64,000 nucleotides of DNA from Candidatus Uhrbacteria bacterium (GTDB lineage Bacteria; Patescibacteriota; Patescibacteriia; UBA9934; GWF2-40-263): the NCBI GenBank assembly GCA_023246355.1, contig JAHFIQ010000001.1, positions 145,887-209,886 on the forward strand, given 5' to 3'. Every line of letters begins with the position of its first letter. The stretch's first letter is position 1. The position numbers were made by a program, and so were the translations under genes. Positions 4,263-61,027 of this stretch are shown piece by piece. The notes beneath the pieces are model-generated. The model had not been told where the DNA came from. It did no database searches and worked only from the letters and a program-made list of their open reading frames with translations.

Positions 4263-6011
4263 TTAAAACGCTCCTGAGTAAGCAATCGCTGCAACGATAT
4301 TCCAATCTTGATCTGAACTTGGAAGGGCGCCGAACGCGGAAACATACGTGGTGATCGCGGCGGACTCGGCCTCCAAGTCGCGCTCATCATCACTTGGGGT
4401 GTAGCCGTTCACCATGTAATCGATGGCGACCCAATCAGCATCCTCAGATGGAAGACGACCGGTGATGGTTCCAAACCAACCAATGGCTTGCTGTTCAAGT
4501 GTCAGCGCTGTTTCTTCTTCTGCGACCACCTCTTCTACCTCTGCCACCTCATCCACCTCTTCCTCATCTCCTGACTCTAGGAAGTCTGTGTAGGCAAGCG
4601 TGTGTACGACATTCCATTCCATGTCCGTCGATGGCATCTTGGCGTACTTGGCACCGAAGATGACGAGTGCTGCTTGCTCGGCCGCCAGATCTTGTTCTTC
4701 TTCTTCACAGCCGCCGTAGGCAATGCAATGCAGAGCTGCCCAGTCGTCTTCTGAGGAAGGCATGCGAGCATAGAACGCTCCGAAGTAGACGAGCGCTTGC
4801 TGCTCAAGACTTGCAGATGTTTCTTCCTCGACTACCTCTTCTACCTCGTCCACCTCGGCCACCTCTTCCTCCTCTCCTGAGTCAAGGAAGTCCGTGTAGG
4901 CAAGCGTGTGGATGACATTCCATTCCATGTCTGTGGATGGCATCTTGCCGTACTTCGCGCCGAAGGTTACGAGTGCTGCTTGCTCGGCCGCCAGATCTTG
5001 TTCTTCTTCTTCACAGCCGCCGTAGGCAATGCAATGCAGAGCTGCCCAGTCGTCTTCTGAGGAAGGCATGCGAGCATAGAACGCTCCGAAGTAGACGAGG
5101 GCCTGTGCTTCAAGAGAGGCGGAAGATTCGGTGGTTGTTTCTTCTTCGGTCGTCTCCTCTTCTGTTGTGGTTTCTCCCTCTTCAAGAGGTTCAAGGCCTA
5201 GCAATTCCTGTCCAGCCGTTGTGTAAGCCAGTGCGTGAACCGCCTGCCAGTCCATAGAAGAAGATGGGTTGGCACCGTACTTGCTATTGAACTTGGCAAG
5301 CGCGGCAACTTCGTACGTGAGATTGCGATTGTCCGAGTCATAGCAACCGTCATCAGCAATACAGTTATTGGTTTCCCAATCGTCATCACTGGATGGAAGG
5401 CGTCCAAACAAGGCGCCGAAGTAAACCAGGGCAGCTGCTTGATCACTCTCACTTGCACCGTTGCTGTTTGAGCTACTTGTATCTTCTTCGTCAGTTGTTG
5501 CTGGAGCTTCTGATTCAACATCAGCGCCCGTGATCGTGATCCTGGACGATCCAAGTTCACCTGTATCGATGGTTTCTTCACCATCGGAAATCAAACGTGA
5601 TGAATCCTCAACCGCGATCGTTGCTGTTCCGGAGGACAGCGCATGAAAGGTCACGGTCGCAAGGGTGCCAGAGCTCGTCACCGGAGTGCCGAACTTGTAC
5701 GCGCCGTAGCTGAGTGTGCCTGCATCGTTGTCGATGTCATTGGAAGGTGAAAGATTTGGAAACAAGCTTCCAAGATCAAACGACAGCACCTCGACCATAT
5801 CTGGATCGAAGGAAAGATCGACACGAACCGTGTCGAGCGACTCGTCGTTGGCGTCCACGAGTACGCTTAAACTAAAAGAGTCCCCTGTCTCAACGGACGT
5901 GTTGGTAGGAGACAACGACAACGTGGCCGTGGTACCGGCATGCGCCGCTGGAATGCCAACGTTCGCGATTCCCATCGCGAGTCCGAGGAAGAGGACGGCA
6001 ATCTTCTTCAT
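4263..6011 (-). CDS. Cohesin-domain surface protein followed by seven ~45-aa acidic repeats
   Basis: Signal peptide MKKIAVLFLGLAMGIANVGIPAAHA. The cohesin-like N-terminal domain reads SFSLSVLVDANDESLDTVRVDLSFDPDMVEVLSF...GTLSYGAY...TVTFHALSSGTATIAV. It is followed by seven repeats of the unit A-[AL]-V-x-F-G-A-x-Y-x-x-M-P-S-x-[DE]-x-[DE]-W-x-x-[IVA]-H-x-[LI]-A-Y, separated by Glu/Thr-rich linkers. Confidence 0.65.
   Translation of the reverse strand: MKKIAVLFLGLAMGIANVGIPAAHAGTTATLSLSPTNTSVETGDSFSLSVLVDANDESLDTVRVDLSFDPDMVEVLSFDLGSLFPNLSPSNDIDNDAGTLSYGAYKFGTPVTSSGTLATVTFHALSSGTATIAVEDSSRLISDGEETIDTGELGSSRITITGADVESEAPATTDEEDTSSSNSNGASESDQAAALVYFGALFGRLPSSDDDWETNNCIADDGCYDSDNRNLTYEVAALAKFNSKYGANPSSSMDWQAVHALAYTTAGQELLGLEPLEEGETTTEEETTEEETTTESSASLEAQALVYFGAFYARMPSSEDDWAALHCIAYGGCEEEEQDLAAEQAALVTFGAKYGKMPSTDMEWNVIHTLAYTDFLDSGEEEEVAEVDEVEEVVEEETSASLEQQALVYFGAFYARMPSSEDDWAALHCIAYGGCEEEEQDLAAEQAALVIFGAKYAKMPSTDMEWNVVHTLAYTDFLESGDEEEVDEVAEVEEVVAEEETALTLEQQAIGWFGTITGRLPSEDADWVAIDYMVNGYTPSDDERDLEAESAAITTYVSAFGALPSSDQDWNIVAAIAYSGAF
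4560..5170. repeat. Near-perfect 306-bp (102-aa) tandem direct duplication inside the cohesin-repeat gene
   Basis: Sequence 4681-4796 is identical to 4987-5102 (gccgccagatcttgttcttcttcttcacagccgccgtaggcaatgcaatgcagagctgcccagtcgtcttctgaggaaggcatgcgagcatagaacgctccgaagtagacgag). The flanks are about 90% identical. Track ORFs 4667..4915 and 4937..5257 translate to the same peptide, which confirms the period. Confidence 0.85.
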
Positions 6012-34976: not shown

Positions 34977-35053
34977 TGGTGGGGGTGGATGGACTCGAAC
35001 CATCGACCGTCGAGGTATAAGCTCGATGCTCTAACCAACTGAGCTACACCCCC
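34977..35053 (-). tRNA. tRNA-Ile (anticodon UAU)
   Basis: Minus-strand sequence GGGGGTGTAGCTCAGTTGGTTAGAGCATCGAGCTTATACCTCGACGGTCGATGGTTCGAGTCCATCCACCCCCACCA. It has a 7-bp acceptor stem, a GCTC/GAGC D stem, an anticodon stem TCGAG/CTCGA with loop CTTATAC, a T arm GATGG-TTCGAGT-CCATC, and an encoded CCA. Confidence 0.8.
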
Positions 35054-38212: not shown

Positions 38213-38318
38213 TTCCAACCCAGATCTCTAGCGTCTTGGTTTCAAAACGACGGGGATCCTTGTTGAAGATTGAATATCCCCGTCCGTCTCAAGCGTTGGG
38301 CGAGACGGACGGGGGTCG
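38213..38318 (-). repeat. ~110-bp intergenic tandem-hairpin repeat, copy R1
   Basis: About 95% identical to 38739..38854. Read on the minus strand, it holds CCGTCCGTCTC-N11-GAGACGGACGG and GACGGGGAT-N18-ATCCCCGTC hairpins, then GTTTTGAAACC, then AGATCTGGGTTGGAA abutting the next gene's RBS. Confidence 0.8.
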
Positions 38319-38738: not shown

Positions 38739-38854
38739 GAAAGAAATTTTCCAACCCAGATCTCTAGCGTCTTGGTTTCAAAACGACGGGGATCCTTGTT
38801 GAAGATTGAATATCCCCATCCGTCTCAAGCGTTGAGCGAGACGGACGGGGGTCG
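38739..38854 (-). repeat. Tandem-hairpin intergenic repeat, copy R2
   Basis: ttttccaacccagatctctagcgtcttggtttcaaaacgacggggatccttgttgaagattgaatatcccc[a/g]tccgtctcaagcgttg[a/g]gcgagacggacgggggtcg is near-identical to R1. Confidence 0.8.
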
Positions 38855-48730: not shown

Positions 48731-50635
48731 ATGTCCCCTTCTCCACAACAACCACAACGACCTCACCCAGGCCCGCGTGGAGGTAAGCCCAAACATCGCG
48801 GGCGTATTTTCCGATCGCAAAAACCGCGTACGGATCATCCAGCTGCCTCCCATCGACCAGCTCCAGCCTCTCATGCTCCGTTCTCTCTTACGCAAAACAC
48901 ACCAGCAAGTAGCTCCCACCACTCAGCCGAACAGACGCCGCACGCTCCACAGGTCCAAACCTTCTCATCTCCTACTGGGGACACCCTGCGCATCATGGTC
49001 CTGGGAGGCTGTGAGGAAGTCGGTCGCAACTGCACACTGATCGAATACAAAAACGACATCATCTTGATCGACATGGGTTTGCAATTCCCTGAAGAAAACA
49101 TGCCTGGGATTGACTACATCATTCCCAACATGAGCTATCTGAAGGGCAAAGAAAAAAATGTCCGAGGGCTCATCATCACCCACGGCCACTACGACCACAT
49201 CGGCGCGATTCCCCACACCATTCCCCATATCGGGAACCCTCCGATCTACGCGCTGCCCATGTCAGCGGCCATCATCAAACGTCGCCAAGAAGACTTCCAC
49301 ACGCGACCACTCAACATCAAAATCACCAAGGCCAGTGATGTCTTGCGATTGGGAGCGCTGACCGTATCCTTCTTCCACATCAACCACTCGATCCCTGATG
49401 CCGTTGGCATTGTCATTGACACTCCGGTTGGGCGCGTCTGCCACACCGGCGATTGGAAATTTGATTTCCATCCTGTGGGTACAGCGCACGCCGACTTCCA
49501 ACACATTGCCACCCTTGGTAAAGAAGGCGTGTTGGTGCTCATGGGAGATTCCACCAACGCCAACCATCCAGGACAACAGGTGTCTGAAAAAGTCATCGGC
49601 GAAGAACTAGATCTGATCATTGAAAAAGCACCTGGACGTCTCATTGTTGGAACCTTTGCCTCGCTGCTCTCTCGCGTCAAACAACTGATCGAGTCCTCTG
49701 AACGTCATGGCAAAAAAGTCGCCATCGATGGCTACTCCATGAAAACCAACGTGGAGATCGCCAAGGTGATGGGATTTATCAAATGCAATCAGTCCACGCT
49801 CATTAAACCCGAACAGATGGATGCCTACGATGACAACAAAGTCGTTCTCATCTGTACGGGCGCCCAGGGCGAAAAAAATGCAGCGCTCAATCGTATCGCC
49901 AACAACGAACACCGCAGCGTGCAAATCCGAGAATCTGACACGATCATTTTTTCCTCATCCGTCATTCCGGGAAATGAAAACTCCGTGCAACGTCTCATGG
50001 ACACGCTCTACCGCAAAGGAGCCAACGTCATCAACTACAAAATGATGGACGTGCACGCTGGAGGCCACGCCAAAAAAGAAGACATCAAGCTCATGCTGGC
50101 TTTGTTCAAACCCAAGTACTACGTGCCCATCGAAGGCAACCACTTCTTGCTGCGAGAGAACGCCAAGGTCGCCTATTCCATGGGATGGCAAAAAGAAAAC
50201 GTGTTCATTGTGGACAACGGACAGATCATGGAATTTCAAAAAGGCCATGGCGTGCTGCGCAAAGAAAAAGTCCCGACCGATTACGTGTTCGTAGACGGCT
50301 TGGGTGTGGGTGATGTTTCACAAGTCGTCCTGCGTGATCGCCAAGTGCTGGCTGAGGACGGTATGGTGATCGTCATCGTGCAGATCGAAAAGCGCACAGG
50401 CAAACTCATCGGCAACCCTGATATCGTCAGTCGTGGATTCATCTTCATGAAAGACCAACAGGAGTTGATTCGCCTCACACGCGAAGAAGTGAAGAAGGCT
50501 CTGATCGACAACGATCCAAAATCTTCTGCGGATCCCAAGTACACGCGCGAGCGCATCCGTGACGAAGTCGGAAAATTCCTCTTCAAAAAAACCGAACGCC
50601 GCCCAATGATTCTACCGGTGGTGATGGAAGTGTAA
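48731..50635 (+). CDS. rnj: Ribonuclease J (metallo-beta-lactamase / beta-CASP) with ~88-aa Pro/His/Ser-rich N-terminal extension
   Basis: IMVLGGCEEVGRNCTLIEY, ITHGHYDHIGAIP (HxHxDH), the beta-CASP region and the C-terminal domain are all present. M at 48995 is an alternative start if the extension is untranslated. Confidence 0.85.
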   Translation: MSPSPQQPQRPHPGPRGGKPKHRGRIFRSQKPRTDHPAASHRPAPASHAPFSLTQNTPASSSHHSAEQTPHAPQVQTFSSPTGDTLRIMVLGGCEEVGRNCTLIEYKNDIILIDMGLQFPEENMPGIDYIIPNMSYLKGKEKNVRGLIITHGHYDHIGAIPHTIPHIGNPPIYALPMSAAIIKRRQEDFHTRPLNIKITKASDVLRLGALTVSFFHINHSIPDAVGIVIDTPVGRVCHTGDWKFDFHPVGTAHADFQHIATLGKEGVLVLMGDSTNANHPGQQVSEKVIGEELDLIIEKAPGRLIVGTFASLLSRVKQLIESSERHGKKVAIDGYSMKTNVEIAKVMGFIKCNQSTLIKPEQMDAYDDNKVVLICTGAQGEKNAALNRIANNEHRSVQIRESDTIIFSSSVIPGNENSVQRLMDTLYRKGANVINYKMMDVHAGGHAKKEDIKLMLALFKPKYYVPIEGNHFLLRENAKVAYSMGWQKENVFIVDNGQIMEFQKGHGVLRKEKVPTDYVFVDGLGVGDVSQVVLRDRQVLAEDGMVIVIVQIEKRTGKLIGNPDIVSRGFIFMKDQQELIRLTREEVKKALIDNDPKSSADPKYTRERIRDEVGKFLFKKTERRPMILPVVMEV

Positions 50636-50794: not shown

Positions 50795-51505
50795 CTACTT
50801 CCGGCGAAGACGCAGGGCCCCGTAACCCGGGTCGGCGCTGTCAGAGCTCCCGCTGAGGTGGATCTCCACCTGACCCCTCCACACCCCGAGGTAGGCACAG
50901 CGCACGCGGCGGGCACGGTTCACCGTCCTGGGGAGATCGATGACGTGCTCGTTCTCCACCACGATCGTTGGGTGATGGGCGTAGGCGAAGACGCCTTCGA
51001 GGGCCGTACCGGCCAGGACGTCGCCGACGAGCTCGCCTCGGCAGTGGTCAGGACGGCGACCGCGGTTCTTGCGTCCGTCGTCGTGGCGGAACCAGAACGG
51101 CTCGGTGGGGAGCGGGAAGCGGTAGTCGAAGGGCTTGACTGAGTCCTCGGCGTAGCCAAACTCCTGAAACTGAATGCCCAGCATCTTGCAGGAGCGCAGC
51201 AGTCCCGGTCGCGGGTCGCACAGGGAAAGGAGCGGCAGCTCGGAGTCCTCGGCGACCAACCCTTCCGGAATCTTGGGGATCCCGGCCAGGTACGCCTTGA
51301 AGTTCTTGGCGCCGACCCTCGGATCACGGCCGAAGCCACGATCCCAAAACCGCTTGGCCATGGCCACACGCGGGTCGGTCATCTTGCCGGCGACTCCGCC
51401 GGAGGTGATCTGACGAATGAAGGACTGGAACTCGTCGTGGAGACCCGGTCCATTCTCGTCGAGCTCCAAGAAGTGCCGGAGCTGTTTGGTATTGATGTGT
51501 CCCAT
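50795..51505 (-). CDS. Hypothetical protein A of GC-rich cassette family (236 aa)
   Basis: About 65% GC against a ~50% background. GGAGG lies 6 nt upstream of the ATG. The C-terminal 180 aa are ~75% identical to the 56711..57418 product (PFWFRHDDGRKN...CRGELVGDVLAGTALEGVFAYA.HPTIVVENEH.IDLPRTV...LRLRRK). No known domain was recognised. Confidence 0.5.
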   Translation of the reverse strand: MGHINTKQLRHFLELDENGPGLHDEFQSFIRQITSGGVAGKMTDPRVAMAKRFWDRGFGRDPRVGAKNFKAYLAGIPKIPEGLVAEDSELPLLSLCDPRPGLLRSCKMLGIQFQEFGYAEDSVKPFDYRFPLPTEPFWFRHDDGRKNRGRRPDHCRGELVGDVLAGTALEGVFAYAHHPTIVVENEHVIDLPRTVNRARRVRCAYLGVWRGQVEIHLSGSSDSADPGYGALRLRRK

Positions 51506-51586
51506 TCTATCCTCCGTCCAAGGTCATCCATCGTGGCACCAAAAGGCGGCACGATCGGTTAGACTCTGGGCAGAATGCACGGTGCC

Positions 51587-51680
51587 GCCGTGCCGGTGTG
51601 TGTGCAAAACCGGAGGATTCCGGCTCTGCAAACGACTGGAGAATATACACCCGTTTGGCGGAAAAGTCAAGAATTCGATA
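51587..51680. promoter_or_regulatory. Conserved ~95-bp promoter/leader element, copy 1 (minus-strand promoter TTGACT-17-TATATT at 51642..51670)
   Basis: About 92% identical to 60933..61027 and partially to 57495..57522. On the minus strand it drives a ~125-nt structured leader. On the plus strand it ends 10 nt before the trpS ATG with TTGGCG-18-TATACT. Confidence 0.6.
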
Positions 51681-51693
51681 TACTGCGCCCTGT

Positions 51694-52686
51694 ATGAGCC
51701 GCATCCTCACCGCCCTCCAGCCTTCCGGCATCCTCCACATCGGCAACTACTTTGGCGCCATTGAGCCCATGGTAAGTCTTCAGTCTGCAGGAAATCAAAA
51801 TCTCTTGTTCATGGTCGACTACCATGCGATCACCGTAGAGCAGGATCCACACACGCTTCGACAAAACATCTTATTTGCGGCTGCGACCTATCTCGCCTCT
51901 GGCATTGATCCTGAAAAGACCATCCTCTTTCAACAGTCACGTGTTTCTGAACATACAGAACTGGCTTGGATTTTGAATTGCTTGGTACGGATGGGCGAGC
52001 TGGAGCGGATGACCCAATACAAAGATAAAGCGCTTGGCAAAGGTCAATCTGTTTCGGTCGGGCTATTCGACTACCCTGTCCTCATGGCCGCGGACATTTT
52101 GCTGTATGACACGAATATCGTGCCTGTGGGGGAAGATCAAAAACAGCATGTGGAACTCGCGCGCGACCTGGCTGAACGCTTCAACAAAAAATTTGGAGAA
52201 ACGTTTGTCGTACCCAAACCGCAGATCCGCAAAGAAGGCGCACGTCTCATGGCGCTCGATGATCCACACAAAAAAATGTCAAAGTCAGCCACGAGTGAAA
52301 AAAACTACCTCTCCCTCATGGACGATGAAAAAACCGTTTTGAAAAAAATCAAAGCAGCGGTCACAGATTCAGAAGGGACGATCCGTCTGAGTCCGTCCCG
52401 ACCAGGGATCGGGAATCTCATCACCATTCTGTCCCTCATCACAAAAAAAACGCCCAAAGAAATCGAAAACGCCTACGAAGGAAAAGGCTATGGCGATTTC
52501 AAAACGGACCTTGCACGCGAGCTTACCGCGTTTCTGACACCCCTCCAGTCAAAGATCAACGCCTTGCTCAAAGATCCCTCTGGGCTCCTGAAGATTCTAG
52601 ACAACGGCGCCTCACGTGCCAAAGCCATGGCAGAAAAAAAGATGATCGACGTCCGTCAAAAAATCGGCGTGACGCTCTCGTCATAA
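51694..52686 (+). CDS. trpS: Tryptophan--tRNA ligase
   Basis: The start is trimmed to MSRILTALQPSGILHIGNYFGA, which holds the HIGH-class motif. KMSKS is present, as is GEDQKQHVELARDLAERFN. Confidence 0.85.
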   Translation: MSRILTALQPSGILHIGNYFGAIEPMVSLQSAGNQNLLFMVDYHAITVEQDPHTLRQNILFAAATYLASGIDPEKTILFQQSRVSEHTELAWILNCLVRMGELERMTQYKDKALGKGQSVSVGLFDYPVLMAADILLYDTNIVPVGEDQKQHVELARDLAERFNKKFGETFVVPKPQIRKEGARLMALDDPHKKMSKSATSEKNYLSLMDDEKTVLKKIKAAVTDSEGTIRLSPSRPGIGNLITILSLITKKTPKEIENAYEGKGYGDFKTDLARELTAFLTPLQSKINALLKDPSGLLKILDNGASRAKAMAEKKMIDVRQKIGVTLSS

Positions 52687-54664: not shown

Positions 54665-55256
54665 TCTTGCTCCAGGCCATATCTTCTACACGCTTTTTCA
54701 ATTCCTGTCAACCAAAAACACCCGCGCGGGGCGAGTGTCTGTGGTGTCCAAGGATCTGTCTGTAAGCCGAATTTTGTCTTCCCTGATTGCTCAGAGGAGA
54801 TGGCAATCTATCTAGGCCTGATGTTGCCACCAGGCTCAAGCGAACGACCAAATTTGTTCTTTCACCAGAACCCGCCGCCGCGAGAGGCTTTGGCGGGCGT
54901 GGAGGGTTTGCCACAATCCATGTCACCATGGAGCGAGAAGCGTAGCTGATTGCTCAACACCACTTCACTTTTCACCTTTCACTCCGACGGACGTCGGAGC
55001 TAGTATTGTCTCTGTGGTACTTTCCCTAGGCTTTGATTCAGGAATCATGGAACAGATTTCTCCAATTCCGCGAGCCCCAATTCTTATACCTGGTCGCCGT
55101 TAGCGACTCTCTTTGTTGTCATACCTTGCGGCACAACAGGTGTTCGGACTTTCCTCATGTTCTTTCAAACACGTAGCCATCCGACAGTCCTTGGACCCAC
55201 AAAAGATACCAGAACGTCTAGTCGATGTCAAGCCATTTTGATAGACTACAGCAAGT

Positions 55257-56710: not shown

Positions 56711-57418
56711 TCACTTCCGGCGAAGACGCAGGGTCCCGCAACCCGGGCTGGCGATGTCAGATTCCCTGTAGAGACTGATCCTCACCTGACCCCTCCACAC
56801 CTCGAGGAAGGCACAGTTCATGCGGCTGTCACGGAGCACCGTCCTGGGGAGGTCGATGGAGTGCTCGTTCTCCACCACGATCGTTGGGTGAAGGGCGTAG
56901 GCGAAGACGCCTTCGAGAGCCGTACCGGCCAGGACGTCGCCGACCAGTTCGTCCCGGCAGTCGTCGGGACGGCGCTTGTGGTTCTTGCGTCCGTCGTCGT
57001 GGCGGAACCAGAAGGGCTCGGCGGGGAGCGGGAAGTTCTGGTTGAAGGGCTCGGCCGATTCCTCACTGAAGCCCAGCTCCTCGAACTGGATGCCAAGCAT
57101 CTTGCAGGAGCGCAGCAATCCCGGCCGCGGGTCGGCAAGGGAGACGAACTCCAACTCGTCATCAACAACGAGGGAGCCGGGAACCTCTGGGATACCTTCC
57201 CAGTAGGCTCTGAAGTTCTTCGACTGCACGTTTGGATCACGGCCGAAGCCCAGAGTCCACAGAGACAGAGCCTGCATCACCCGCAGGCTCACGGGATCTG
57301 CCTCCAGGCCGCGAATGAACTCGTCTACTTGTTCCCCAATCCCGGAAAGGCTCACTCGCCTTCGGGCATCCTGAATCCGAGCCAACTTGACCAAATGCTC
57401 TGCATCAAACAGTGACAT
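56711..57418 (-). CDS. Hypothetical protein B of GC-rich cassette family (paralog of 50795..51505)
   Basis: 235 aa and GC-rich. It has the same C-terminal block and the same final LRLRRK as protein A. Confidence 0.5.
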   Translation of the reverse strand: MSLFDAEHLVKLARIQDARRRVSLSGIGEQVDEFIRGLEADPVSLRVMQALSLWTLGFGRDPNVQSKNFRAYWEGIPEVPGSLVVDDELEFVSLADPRPGLLRSCKMLGIQFEELGFSEESAEPFNQNFPLPAEPFWFRHDDGRKNHKRRPDDCRDELVGDVLAGTALEGVFAYALHPTIVVENEHSIDLPRTVLRDSRMNCAFLEVWRGQVRISLYRESDIASPGCGTLRLRRK

Positions 57419-57485: not shown

Positions 57486-57522
57486 AGTATCGTCCCGTTT
57501 GGCGGAAAAGTCAAGAATTGAT
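57486..57522. promoter_or_regulatory. Conserved promoter element, copy 2 (minus: TTGACT-17-GATACT; abuts GT4 start on plus)
   Basis: cgtttggcggaaaagtcaagaattgata matches copy 1, including the gaatt(c)gata tail, and sits 14 nt before the ATG at 57537. Confidence 0.5.
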
Positions 57523-57536
57523 AGGATGCCGGGGCT

Positions 57537-58646
57537 ATGAAACTGGCACTGGTTCACGACTACTTGATCCAAAACGGTGGGGCAGAAAAAGTGTTGGAAG
57601 TCTTTGGTTCTCTGTGGCCGGACTCCCCCATCTACACGCTCCTGTTTGACCCAGAGCGGCTCCCGACCTTCCAAGGCCGGGATATTCGTACATCGTTTCT
57701 TGAACGACTTCCCTTTGGCCGTCAAAAATATCAGTGGTACTTGCCTCTCATGCCCACCGCCACCGAACACTACGACCTCTCTGACTTTGATGTTGTCCTC
57801 TCATCAACGAGTGCCTTTGCCAAAGGGGTGATCACCCGAGACGACGCTCTTCACATTTGTTATTGTCATACCCCGACGCGATATCTTTGGAGCGACACGC
57901 ACAGCTACGTGGACGAACTGCGTGTTCCGGGATTTGTAAAAATGCTGTTGCCCCCAGTGCTCTCACGCCTTCGACTCTGGGACAAGACGGCCGCTGATCG
58001 TGTGGATGTGTTCGTGGCGAATTCCAAAACCGTCCAAAGCCGCATTCAAAAATATTACCGCCGTGATGCACAGGTCATTCATCCTCCGGTTGATACACAT
58101 CGTTTTCAAATTGCCCCAACCTCTGCCATATCCACCTCCCCCTACTTTCTCACCGGCGGCCGCTTGGTTGCCTACAAACGCTACGACCTGGTCATCCAAG
58201 CTGCCAACCGGACAAAGCTGCCACTGAAAGTTTTCGGCACAGGTCCGATTGAGGATGATCTGAAAAAAATGGCTGGATCTCACATCGAGTTTCTTGGCCG
58301 TGTCTCACAGGAAGAACAAGCACGGCTGTACCAGGGAGCGCTCGCGTTTATCCATCCTCAAGAAGAGGACTTCGGGATTACACCTGTGGAATCCATGGCC
58401 AGCGGTCGTCCGGTCATCGCGTACAAAAAAGGCGGTGCGACCGAAACCGTTGTCGAAGGACTCTCTGGAGAATTTTTTCAAGAACAAATTTGGGAGGAAG
58501 TCGCCGACCTCATGCTGCGTTTTGACGAACGTCGCTACGATCCTCAGGCCATCAAAGCGCACGCTGAACAGTTTTCAAAAGAACGTTTTGAACGCGAGAT
58601 GAAATCGTTTGTTGAATCGCAATGGGAGGCTCATCGCCGCGTATGA
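57537..58646 (+). CDS. GT4 family glycosyltransferase
   Basis: N-terminus MKLALVHDYLIQNGGAEKVLEV. C-terminus QEEDFGITPVESMASGRPVIAYKKGGATETV. Confidence 0.8.
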   Translation: MKLALVHDYLIQNGGAEKVLEVFGSLWPDSPIYTLLFDPERLPTFQGRDIRTSFLERLPFGRQKYQWYLPLMPTATEHYDLSDFDVVLSSTSAFAKGVITRDDALHICYCHTPTRYLWSDTHSYVDELRVPGFVKMLLPPVLSRLRLWDKTAADRVDVFVANSKTVQSRIQKYYRRDAQVIHPPVDTHRFQIAPTSAISTSPYFLTGGRLVAYKRYDLVIQAANRTKLPLKVFGTGPIEDDLKKMAGSHIEFLGRVSQEEQARLYQGALAFIHPQEEDFGITPVESMASGRPVIAYKKGGATETVVEGLSGEFFQEQIWEEVADLMLRFDERRYDPQAIKAHAEQFSKERFEREMKSFVESQWEAHRRV

Positions 58647-59934: not shown

Positions 59935-60858
59935 TTAGAGAACGCCGAGGAGGCGGAACCCGACGTCGTCGCCGGGACCGCGCGACCAGCGCCTGCCCAC
60001 ACCCGCGAGCCCACCGTAGCCACGGTTGCCGACGAACACCCGGTGGACAGAACCGTAGGCGTTTTCCGTCCATTCCCAGGAGGCGGTGGCGCCGAGATCC
60101 TGGAACTGCGTCCCATGGAGACGATTGAGCTCGAGCAGGATGTTGCCGAAGAAGTTCCACTCCTGTGCGGTCATGGGGCGCACGGCCGCCTTCTTGAGAC
60201 TCCAGAGCTGGGCCGTCTGCGGACACAGGGTGGCCCGCAGGTGATCCCACGAGATCTTGAAGCGAGTCTGGAGGCCGAGCTCGAAAGCGAGCCGGTCGTT
60301 ACCACCGCCGTAGCCCTTCGGATCGTTCCAATCGGGCTTGCGAACGAGCTCGATCACGACCCAGCGCCCCGGCAGCGGATGATGCGTGATCTGGCTCTCG
60401 TCGATATGGCGACCCCAGTCGGGAGCGATCCAGCCATCCGGACGGGTCGCAGAAGTGAGCGCGGTCGGAAGGAAGATCGGAATCAGATTCCCATCGTCGA
60501 TCCAGCCGCGGGTCCTGGCACTCATGTGCTTCTTCAAGGGCGGCAGTGAGGCACTGACCTTGGGGAACTTCAGCGCGTAGAACTCGCTCCAGAAGGCCTG
60601 CGGATCACTCGCGATCCGACGCAGGAGCGCCGCGGTCGCGTCGATGTTCGGCGGCTGTTCCGACTCGGCCTTGGGTGCGAGCCTGGCCTTCACCCAGGCG
60701 TCGAGCTCAGTGGGGTCGATCAGGTGACGAGCGAGAGCTTCACCTAGCGGCATGGTGACCGCATGGGCGCCCAAAAGGCCGTTCAGGCCGTCCGGGGTGA
60801 GGTGCTCACGCCGCTTGTTGATCTCGTCGGCCCAGCCGGGCAATGCTTCCAGAGTCAT
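59935..60858 (-). CDS. Hypothetical protein C of the GC-rich cassette set; C-terminus weakly FGE-sulfatase (SUMF1/EgtB/PvdO)-like
   Basis: The start is trimmed to MTLEALPGW, with AAGGAG 6 nt upstream. The track's 511-aa ORF extends across the promoter and is rejected. The C-terminus reads RPMTAQEWNFF...ASWEWTEN...RVFVGNRGYGG...VGFRLLG, which resembles the order RLPTEAEWEY...NVWEWT...RGGSW...GFR. Confidence 0.4.
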   Translation of the reverse strand: MTLEALPGWADEINKRREHLTPDGLNGLLGAHAVTMPLGEALARHLIDPTELDAWVKARLAPKAESEQPPNIDATAALLRRIASDPQAFWSEFYALKFPKVSASLPPLKKHMSARTRGWIDDGNLIPIFLPTALTSATRPDGWIAPDWGRHIDESQITHHPLPGRWVVIELVRKPDWNDPKGYGGGNDRLAFELGLQTRFKISWDHLRATLCPQTAQLWSLKKAAVRPMTAQEWNFFGNILLELNRLHGTQFQDLGATASWEWTENAYGSVHRVFVGNRGYGGLAGVGRRWSRGPGDDVGFRLLGVL

Positions 60859-60932
60859 GATTTCTCCTTCCCTTGCGACTTTCTTACCACCCCTTACAAA
60901 CGGGTTGATAAGTACTTGCAAAGGACGAATGC

Positions 60933-61027
60933 GCACGGTGCCGCCGTGACGGTGTGTGTGCAAAACCAGAGGATTCCGGCTGTGCAAACGACTGGAGAAT
61001 ATACTCCAGTTTGGCGGAAAAGTCAAG
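60933..61027. promoter_or_regulatory. Conserved promoter/leader element, copy 3 (minus promoter TTGACT-17-TATATT at 60998..61026)
   Basis: gcacggtgccgccgtgacggtgtgtgtgcaaaaccagaggattccggctgtgcaaacgactggagaatatactccagtttggcggaaaagtcaag matches copy 1. The hairpin CCGGA/TCYGG retains pairing. Confidence 0.6.

Follow-up and report, generated by a model that had tools for sequence, protein, structure and literature searches.

A conserved, structured 5′ leader RNA precedes three families of hypothetical genes in Candidatus Uhrbacteria

The minus-strand interval 51506-51640 of the window (the whole 64,000 nt stretch of Candidatus Uhrbacteria DNA analyzed here) is a conserved, structured mRNA leader and not an attenuator, a conclusion that we hold with high confidence. 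A sigma-70-type promoter precedes the interval and the ATG (51505) of a 236 aa ORF follows it; the leader matches no described RNA family. To a fuller reading, in which the leader is constitutively folded, its first hairpin (P1) is protective, and its second hairpin (P2) is bound by a shared factor, we would give an even chance. The first-pass annotation of this DNA had described the same interval as a leader with mutually exclusive hairpins followed by U-runs. The strings that it quoted are all present on the minus strand: CCGGAAUCCUCCGG (51610-51623) followed by UUUUG (51605-51609), the two arms of stem A, GCACGG (51588-51593) and CCGUGC (51577-51582), the stem B arms GGCGGCAC (51582-51589) and GUGCCGCC (51545-51552), the latter followed by UUUUGG (51539-51544), and GGAGG (51511-51515).

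The gene downstream of the leader (family A; 50795-51505, minus strand) encodes a hypothetical protein of 236 aa with homologs in Uhrbacteria and other Patescibacteria only. The 47 homologs of the ORF are all hypothetical proteins from Candidatus Uhrbacteria or other Patescibacteria. The leader is about 132 nt long, upstream of the ATG at 51503-51505, and together with the promoter region it makes up an intergenic region of 188 bp. Its start site is a prediction from promoter geometry alone. The divergent neighbor, which starts at 51694 on the opposite strand, encodes a class-I tRNA synthetase from the Trp/Tyr family and is called trpS here. Directly downstream of the family A gene is an RNase J gene, with RNase J domains in the ORF at 48731-50635. 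The minimum free energy of the leader is −59.6 kcal/mol (z = −4.8), and 0/200 shuffled sequences were equally stable. A Shine-Dalgarno sequence, GGAGG, can be read at 51511-51515. A coding explanation for the leader is opposed by insertions of 27, 28, and 78 nt in relatives, and the mechanical ORF at 51507-51746 was rejected as such an explanation, as the promoter sits inside it. Population variants of the same strain have identical leaders and hence are uninformative.

Several other features of the window were recorded. An RNase P RNA (class A) is found at 54746-55192 on the minus strand (125.8 bits); its length of 447 nt against a 367 nt model suggests sizeable insertions. A tRNA-Ile with anticodon TAT lies at 34977-35053 on the minus strand. 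A direct repeat of 106 nt (98% identical) occurs twice, 536 nt apart, in an ORF-poor stretch (38213-38318 and 38749-38854). Each copy carries, on the minus strand and just after a small minus-strand ORF, a 13 bp GC hairpin (CCCCGUCCGUCUC...GAGACGGACGGGG); the repeat has no Rfam match and may be a repeated terminator-plus-promoter module. A tandem 300 nt repeat (90% identical, 4515-5120) lies inside a 582 aa ORF (4263-6011, minus strand), pointing to a repeated protein domain.

The comparison set comprised 27 related leaders, taken from Uhrbacteria genomes and from metagenomes. Scanning GTDB genomes with the protein as guide yielded 12 loci. A search of metagenomes for an exact DNA pattern returned 59 matches, 11 of them genuine and the rest chance matches without a promoter or hairpin, and further relatives came from gene-context look-ups. 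RNAalifold predicts P1 and P2 from 21 leaders, and a covariance model built from 21 sequences found 27 instances among the collected sequences. The model scores copy 1, the leader described above, at 89.4 bits on this strand vs. 14.6 bits on the opposite strand, and this difference and the frequent G·U pairs fix the strand of the RNA. When the 27 leaders are aligned with the model, pairing holds in 94.7% of the P1 + P2 cells, vs. 26-51% when the partner strand is slid. Two-sided changes occur in five pairs (20 cells), with these counts inflated by non-independent copies from the same genome, and 0/500 shuffles reach the covariation score.

All genuine loci share one layout: promoter, AGUCGUUUGCA, P1, a CA-rich linker, P2, a third hairpin (P3), A(C/U)GGAGG, and ATG. 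Genes of three families follow the P1-P2 block, namely A (236 aa), B (307 aa), and C (310 aa), and each of the 27 copies found elsewhere likewise stands before a gene of one of the three. A phage-borne or mobile element was considered and rejected: viral contigs gave one chance pattern match, 72 chance matches to the promoter pattern, and no covariance-model match. Rfam 15, including its riboswitches, T-box, and ribosomal leaders, has nothing in the leader at the gathering threshold, and permissive searches (E ≤ 10) of copy 1 and of one related leader (L003a) returned noise only (E ≥ 0.07). The search of Rfam that the first-pass annotation had proposed thus gave no known riboswitch or leader family, T-box included. 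In the literature we found no paper linking Uhrbacteria with riboswitches or with this leader motif.

P1 (leader nt 2-40; 51598-51636, minus strand) is a long 5′-terminal hairpin found by RNAfold, RNAalifold, and pair counts. It begins at about +2 of the predicted transcript (P1 starts at 51636; the −10 box is at 51642-51647) and forms a helix of 12-14 bp. The hairpin at 51610-51623, previously taken for a small terminator with UUUUG as its tail, is only the tip of P1. The first U-run (51605-51609) belongs to the 3′ strand of P1, where UUUUG pairs with CAGAG and is not a free U-tail. In three relatives this run is interrupted as CUUUG, which converts G·U to G-C and keeps the pairing. Four apical pairs of P1 covary (CCGG/CCGG, CCGA/UCGG, CCGU/ACGG, UCAG/CUGA, and CUGG/CCAG), accompanied by many G·U pairs, and the covariation score is reached by 0/500 shuffles. 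At least six distinct variants of the apical stem show two-sided compensatory changes. The lower stem is nearly invariant in sequence, and the TGCA in both of its strands is also a direct repeat (GTTTGCA...GTTTTGCA). The loop, RAWCCK, consists of conserved unpaired nucleotides. In the distant loci L074 and L008 the sequence of P1 has changed and there is still a hairpin at the predicted 5′ end. Locus L003 (2789-2928) has a structured insertion of 78 nt within P1.

P2 (GCACGG-CGGCA-CCGUGC; 51577-51593, minus strand) corresponds to the previously described stem A and is the leader element most conserved in sequence. At least 25 of the 27 sequences preserve its five inner pairs, its closing pair alternates among G-C, G·U, and A-U, and its loop is conserved with the consensus CGGNA. 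Since the core is invariant, covariation neither proves nor contradicts the pairing of P2. The hairpin is retained in L074 and L008; in the latter (2800-2850) a hairpin of about 30 nt is inserted in its loop. The linker between P1 and P2 is CA-rich (CACACACACCG in copy 1), with conserved unpaired nucleotides and variable length. Its last four bases are an unpaired ACCG (leader nt 41-44; 51594-51597, minus strand). Some relatives (L005, L006, L011, L032, L056, and L059) carry a 27-28 nt GC hairpin, CCCCGUCGCUCGCGAGCGACGGGG, inserted in this linker. A kissing interaction of UCCG in the P1 loop with CGGA in the P2 loop was not detected, with 69% paired vs. 70% in shuffles, and neither a compact junction nor a pseudoknot was found in the P1-P2 domain.

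P3 (leader nt 63-126; 51512-51575, minus strand), identified by pair counts and folding, is a long imperfect hairpin that is specific to the gene family: family A genes are preceded by three or more forms of it, and families B and C by one form each. For the class of copy 1, represented by five leaders, the P2 + P3 fold is 93% paired with seven covarying pairs, all of which fall in two P3 helices, and 0/500 shuffles reach the score. A third P3 class has one-sided changes only. With covarying pairs in P1 as well as P3, the proposal of a conserved, structured minus-strand leader with a conserved fold stands, and a cis-acting function of this RNA is plausible. The apical hairpin of P3 is AUCGUGCCGCC-UUUU-GGUGCCACGAU. 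The second U-run (51539-51544) includes the loop of this local hairpin and reads CAGAAU, UAGAAU, or CUUGGG in relatives, i.e., it is not conserved, which does not fit its former assignment as a terminator tail.

The antiterminator/terminator alternative previously proposed for this leader depends on stem B, and stem B is perfect in copy 1 only. Its 5′ arm (51582-51589, minus strand) overlaps the loop and the 3′ strand of P2 and is not the conserved partner of its 3′ arm (51545-51552, minus strand), which is part of the P3 apical stem. Over five leaders of the same class stem B is 80% paired, a value matched by 155/500 shuffles. The 3′ arm covaries instead with its local partner (GUG/CAC to GUA/UAC; CCGCC/GGUGC to CCAUC/AUGGUG), and forcing stem B costs 10.4 kcal/mol (−28.0 vs. 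−38.4). Pair counts and energy therefore reject stem B as a conserved alternative, and with it the mutually exclusive structures of the first reading. A stem-B-like pairing of the P2 loop (GGNAC) with a recurring GUACC was likewise rejected, being consistent in only about 4/17 leaders by manual check. The leaders of families B, C, and the other A types have no equivalent of the stem B alternative, and a terminator scan found no terminator-like site on the leader strand of copy 1 or copy 3.

Sequestration of the Shine-Dalgarno sequence by P3 was not detected either: the mean probability of the ribosome-binding site being unpaired is 0.34, vs. 0.34 with shuffled upstream sequence. The apex of P1 in copy 1 has a perfect 8 nt match to the Shine-Dalgarno region (AUCCUCCG vs. 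CGGAGGAU). As an anti-Shine-Dalgarno element the apex was rejected, as duplex energies in 24 leaders were no better than those of shuffles (z from −1.6 to +1.5) and the match is not conserved.

The leader promoter of copy 1 consists of a −35 box TTGACT (51665-51670, minus strand), a 17 nt spacer, and a −10 box TATATT (51642-51647, minus strand), with 10/12 matches in the promoter scan and a predicted start at about 51635-51637. The −35 box is conserved in about 25 related loci, and among relatives P1 keeps a constant distance to the −10 box. The spacer, CGCCAAAC, contains a conserved CGCCAA. Its reverse complement, TTGGCG, is the −35 box (51655-51660) of a divergent promoter on the plus strand (51655-51684), with an 18 nt spacer and a −10 box TATACT (51679-51684); across the modules a −10 box of the form TAnnnT follows 17-18 nt further on. 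With its two −35 boxes interleaved, the module forms a compact promoter for both directions, which explains the conservation of the spacer.

This interleaved divergent promoter is seen in the window at 51655-51696 and 57497-57539 (both plus strand) and in about 20 related loci. At 51655-51684 its −10 box is 9 nt before the trpS ATG at 51694, so that a near-leaderless mRNA is predicted. The divergent gene varies by locus (trpS, a glycosyltransferase, or others), and its ATG is about 8-10 nt past the −10 box in most of the 25 promoter modules inspected. This spacing implies that the divergent genes would have leaderless or near-leaderless mRNAs. Mutual exclusion of the two interleaved promoters is possible.

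An 18-mer, TTGACTTTTCCGCCAAAC, occurs three times in the window, always on the minus strand and as direct repeats. Two of the occurrences belong to full copies of the module, the only two in the 64 kb, each upstream of a family A or B gene. Copy 1 (51577-51671) and copy 3 (60933-61027) are 95% identical over 95 nt, which comprise the promoter and about the first 61 nt of the leader. Within the copy 3 module (60932-61026, minus strand), folds and the promoter scan place the −35 box at 61021-61026, the −10 box at 60998-61003, the predicted start at about 60993, P1 at 60954-60992, and P2 at 60932-60951 (81.3 bits with the covariance model). It had been claimed that copy 3 keeps the first hairpin through a compensatory change and lacks stem B. 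The pairing is indeed retained and stem B is absent, but the change is a single C-to-U that turns a G-C into a G·U pair and is not two-sided. Copy 3 has its own P3, a long hairpin specific to family B (60865-60929, minus strand) that ends at the ribosome-binding site GGAGA (60863-60867), followed by the family B gene (59935-60858, minus strand; 307 aa, hypothetical). Across five family B leaders this hairpin has 25 predicted pairs, three of them covarying.

Copy 2 is a promoter only (57486-57514, minus strand), with TTGACT, 17 nt, GATACT, the same spacer as above, and the 18-mer at 57497-57514. Its short leader is without P1 and P2, has no significant fold (z = −1.3), and gives no covariance-model match. 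The gene downstream (56711-57418, minus strand) encodes a family A paralog of 235 aa with 61% identity to that of copy 1. Two other family A loci, L009 and L077, likewise keep the promoter without P1 and P2, which the two-way promoter accounts for. Because these three loci keep the promoter without the hairpins, the leader is dispensable for expression as such.

The 5′ domain is more conserved than the sequence that follows it. Compared with copy 1 it is 84-94% identical in seven of nine relatives and 79-82% in the other two, while in the same nine the first 300 nt of the coding sequence are 68-82% identical and P3 usually 57-75%. To judge by these comparisons, the 5′ domain is under strong selection. 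Copies of the module within one genome are 87-99% identical though their genes are unrelated, vs. a mean of 70% between genomes. Examples are the two full copies in the window (51577-51671 vs. 60933-61027) and those in L001, L078, and L056/L059. Copies within a genome also share lineage-specific features, e.g., an inserted hairpin. The concertedly evolving block runs from the −35 box to the 3′ end of P2. This pattern points to concerted evolution, by gene conversion, by co-evolution with one shared trans-acting partner, or by both. Optional hairpins are inserted at fixed sites of the leader.

The proteins downstream of the leader give little indication of function. Families A, B, and C have no recognizable domains, with nothing significant in Pfam, NCBIfam, PADLOC, or PHROGs, or in PDB sequence searches. 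AlphaFold models are mediocre (pLDDT 68), and none of the Foldseek matches was significant, a C-type lectin (E = 0.6) being the top one for family A. A profile-profile comparison detected no homology between A and B. The C termini of families B and C have in common the tail ...GGLAxV...W...DDxGFRxL, which resembles the FGE/C-type-lectin folds of variable proteins. A distant family A homolog (P0042) adjoins a diversity-generating retroelement with a bAvd accessory gene and a reverse transcriptase (L074, 4001-6584; L075, 4001-6572).

The simplest reading is that the leader is constitutively folded, because the kissing interaction, pairing of the P1 apex with the ribosome-binding site, and occlusion of that site are all negative. 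The leader would then not be a terminator/antiterminator switch. P1 may be a 5′-terminal protective stem-loop that shields the mRNA from 5′-end-dependent decay. P2, with its conserved flanks and CGGNA loop, may be where a shared trans-acting factor binds; because P2 and its flanks are invariant, that partner should be sequence-specific, and a protein is the likeliest candidate. Such a factor could coordinate the expression of families A, B, and C, and a shared partner or gene conversion would make the copies within a genome nearly identical. Several observations count against this reading: a purely protective hairpin would not need a nearly invariant lower P1 stem, the unvarying P2 core yields no covariation to prove its pairing, the covariation counts are inflated, the domain, sequence, and structure searches gave no candidate binding protein, and some family A genes do without P1 and P2. 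We also entertain, as a tentative and on balance doubtful possibility, a sensory role for the P1-P2 domain: as a new RNA specific to Uhrbacteria it would bind either a ligand or a protein dedicated to it and coordinate a small regulon of the uncharacterized genes of families A, B, and C, which lie amid genes for cell-envelope glycosylation, and concerted evolution with its trans-acting partner would keep it nearly identical within each genome.

A riboswitch, with P1-P2 as an aptamer that alters translation or stability of the A, B, and C mRNAs, would account for the strong conservation of a 5′ domain that is common to several gene families and more conserved than the coding sequences, for the conserved unpaired nucleotides of the P1 loop, linker, and P2 loop, and for the optional hairpins at fixed sites, as in many structured RNAs. 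We consider it unlikely, although not negligibly so. The domain consists of two simple hairpins joined by a variable linker, without sign of a compact junction or pseudoknot, and its loop-loop pairing is no more frequent than in shuffles. A conserved alternative pairing to the ribosome-binding site or to a terminator was not found, the downstream genes carry no annotation for metabolism or transport from which a ligand could be guessed, and Rfam has no match. Clearly unlikely, too, is that the conservation belongs to the DNA, the block of about 95 bp being a promoter, operator, or gene-conversion tract in which the hairpins are incidental. The block does start right at the −35 box, it contains two promoters that interleave, it is homogenized within genomes, its three copies in the window are direct repeats, and so is the TGCA of the lower P1 stem. 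The strand-specific pairing is rich in G·U, however, and these pairs would be C-A mismatches in DNA or on the other strand, in line with 89 vs. 14.6 bits. At least six apical-stem variants with two-sided changes, conservation that extends 60 nt past the predicted start site, and the loci that keep the promoter without the RNA part, which show the two to be separable, also argue against it.

The attenuator of the first-pass annotation, in which stem A is the antiterminator, stem B with its U-run the terminator, and the first small hairpin a further terminator, with a ligand, a protein, or translation deciding between the structures, is very improbable. What speaks for it is confined to copy 1, where the 8 nt complementarity of GGCGGCAC and GUGCCGCC overlaps stem A and U-runs follow both hairpins. 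In the same-class leaders stem B pairs no better than in shuffles, its 3′ arm covaries with the local partner, and the fold that contains it is less stable by 10.4 kcal/mol. Changes in the first U-run, which is base-paired, preserve that pairing (G·U to G-C in three sequences), and the second U-run is a hairpin loop that is not conserved. The terminator scan was empty on the leader strand, T-box and other leader families gave no match, and the leaders of families B, C, and the other A types lack an equivalent. Even less probable is an independent small RNA that ends at the P1 hairpin and UUUU, with read-through producing the mRNA. Most copies do conserve a hairpin with UUUU after it. This U-run is only 4 nt long, is paired within P1, and is interrupted in several relatives with the pairing kept; the P1 hairpin with its UUUU fails the terminator scan, and the same unit continues downstream with a conserved linker and P2.

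Patescibacteria, whose very small genomes hold few recognizable regulators, are uncultivated, and to our knowledge almost nothing is known of gene regulation in this group (the Candidate Phyla Radiation). The module described here is more conserved than the proteins that it precedes, defines a regulon, predicts start sites, and comes with a covariance model. It also reveals a compact two-way promoter that is predicted to give near-leaderless mRNAs. An RNA of about 62 nt could be probed in vitro for a ligand or serve as bait for a binding protein. The case is also instructive for annotation: complementarity in a single copy together with U-runs looked attenuator-like, and comparative data showed otherwise.

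The leader can be compared with several known systems. Like trp leader, T-box, and riboswitch platforms, it is a long structured leader upstream of a ribosome-binding site, with, in copy 1 alone, an 8 bp alternative that overlaps stem A. Unlike attenuators, it has no free U-tract terminator, conserved alternative pairing, leader peptide, or Rfam match. It does not control trpS, because that gene is divergently transcribed. The guanidine-II (mini-ykkC) riboswitch similarly has two small hairpins with conserved loops and a variable linker; in the Uhrbacteria leader, by contrast, the loops are not ACGR, the loop-loop test is negative, Rfam has no match, and the downstream genes are unrelated to guanidine. 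Like pneumococcal BOX and neisserial Correia elements, the module is multi-copy, forms hairpins, is homogenized within a genome, and carries promoter signals. Unlike them, it is found only before families A, B, and C at orthologous positions, and it has neither terminal inverted repeats nor dispersed copies. The many copies at unrelated intergenic sites that characterize dispersed repeats (BOX, REP, or MITE-like) were not observed.

Ribosomal-protein leaders and the 5′ UTR of rne are closer in one respect, as they too have a small invariant hairpin in the 5′ UTR that is more conserved than the coding sequence. The hairpin in the rne 5′ UTR is bound by RNase E. The Uhrbacteria leader differs in that the gene downstream encodes neither a ribosomal protein nor an RNase and in that it belongs to no Rfam leader family.

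In Escherichia coli and Bacillus subtilis, 5′ stem-loops are established mRNA stabilizers (references 93-95 and 109 listed in PMC3997798). Like the 5′-terminal stabilizers of E. coli ompA and papA and of the B. subtilis aprE leader, the long structured leader has a stable hairpin 1-2 nt from the predicted 5′ end and, after it, a strong ribosome-binding site. As in these stabilizer systems, the organism encodes a 5′-end-dependent nuclease, RNase J. Unlike in ompA, papA, and aprE, the Uhrbacteria hairpin is strongly conserved in sequence, is coupled to a second, invariant hairpin, and is common to three gene families. By analogy, the leader appears most like a 5′-terminal stabilizer leader combined with a protein-binding hairpin.
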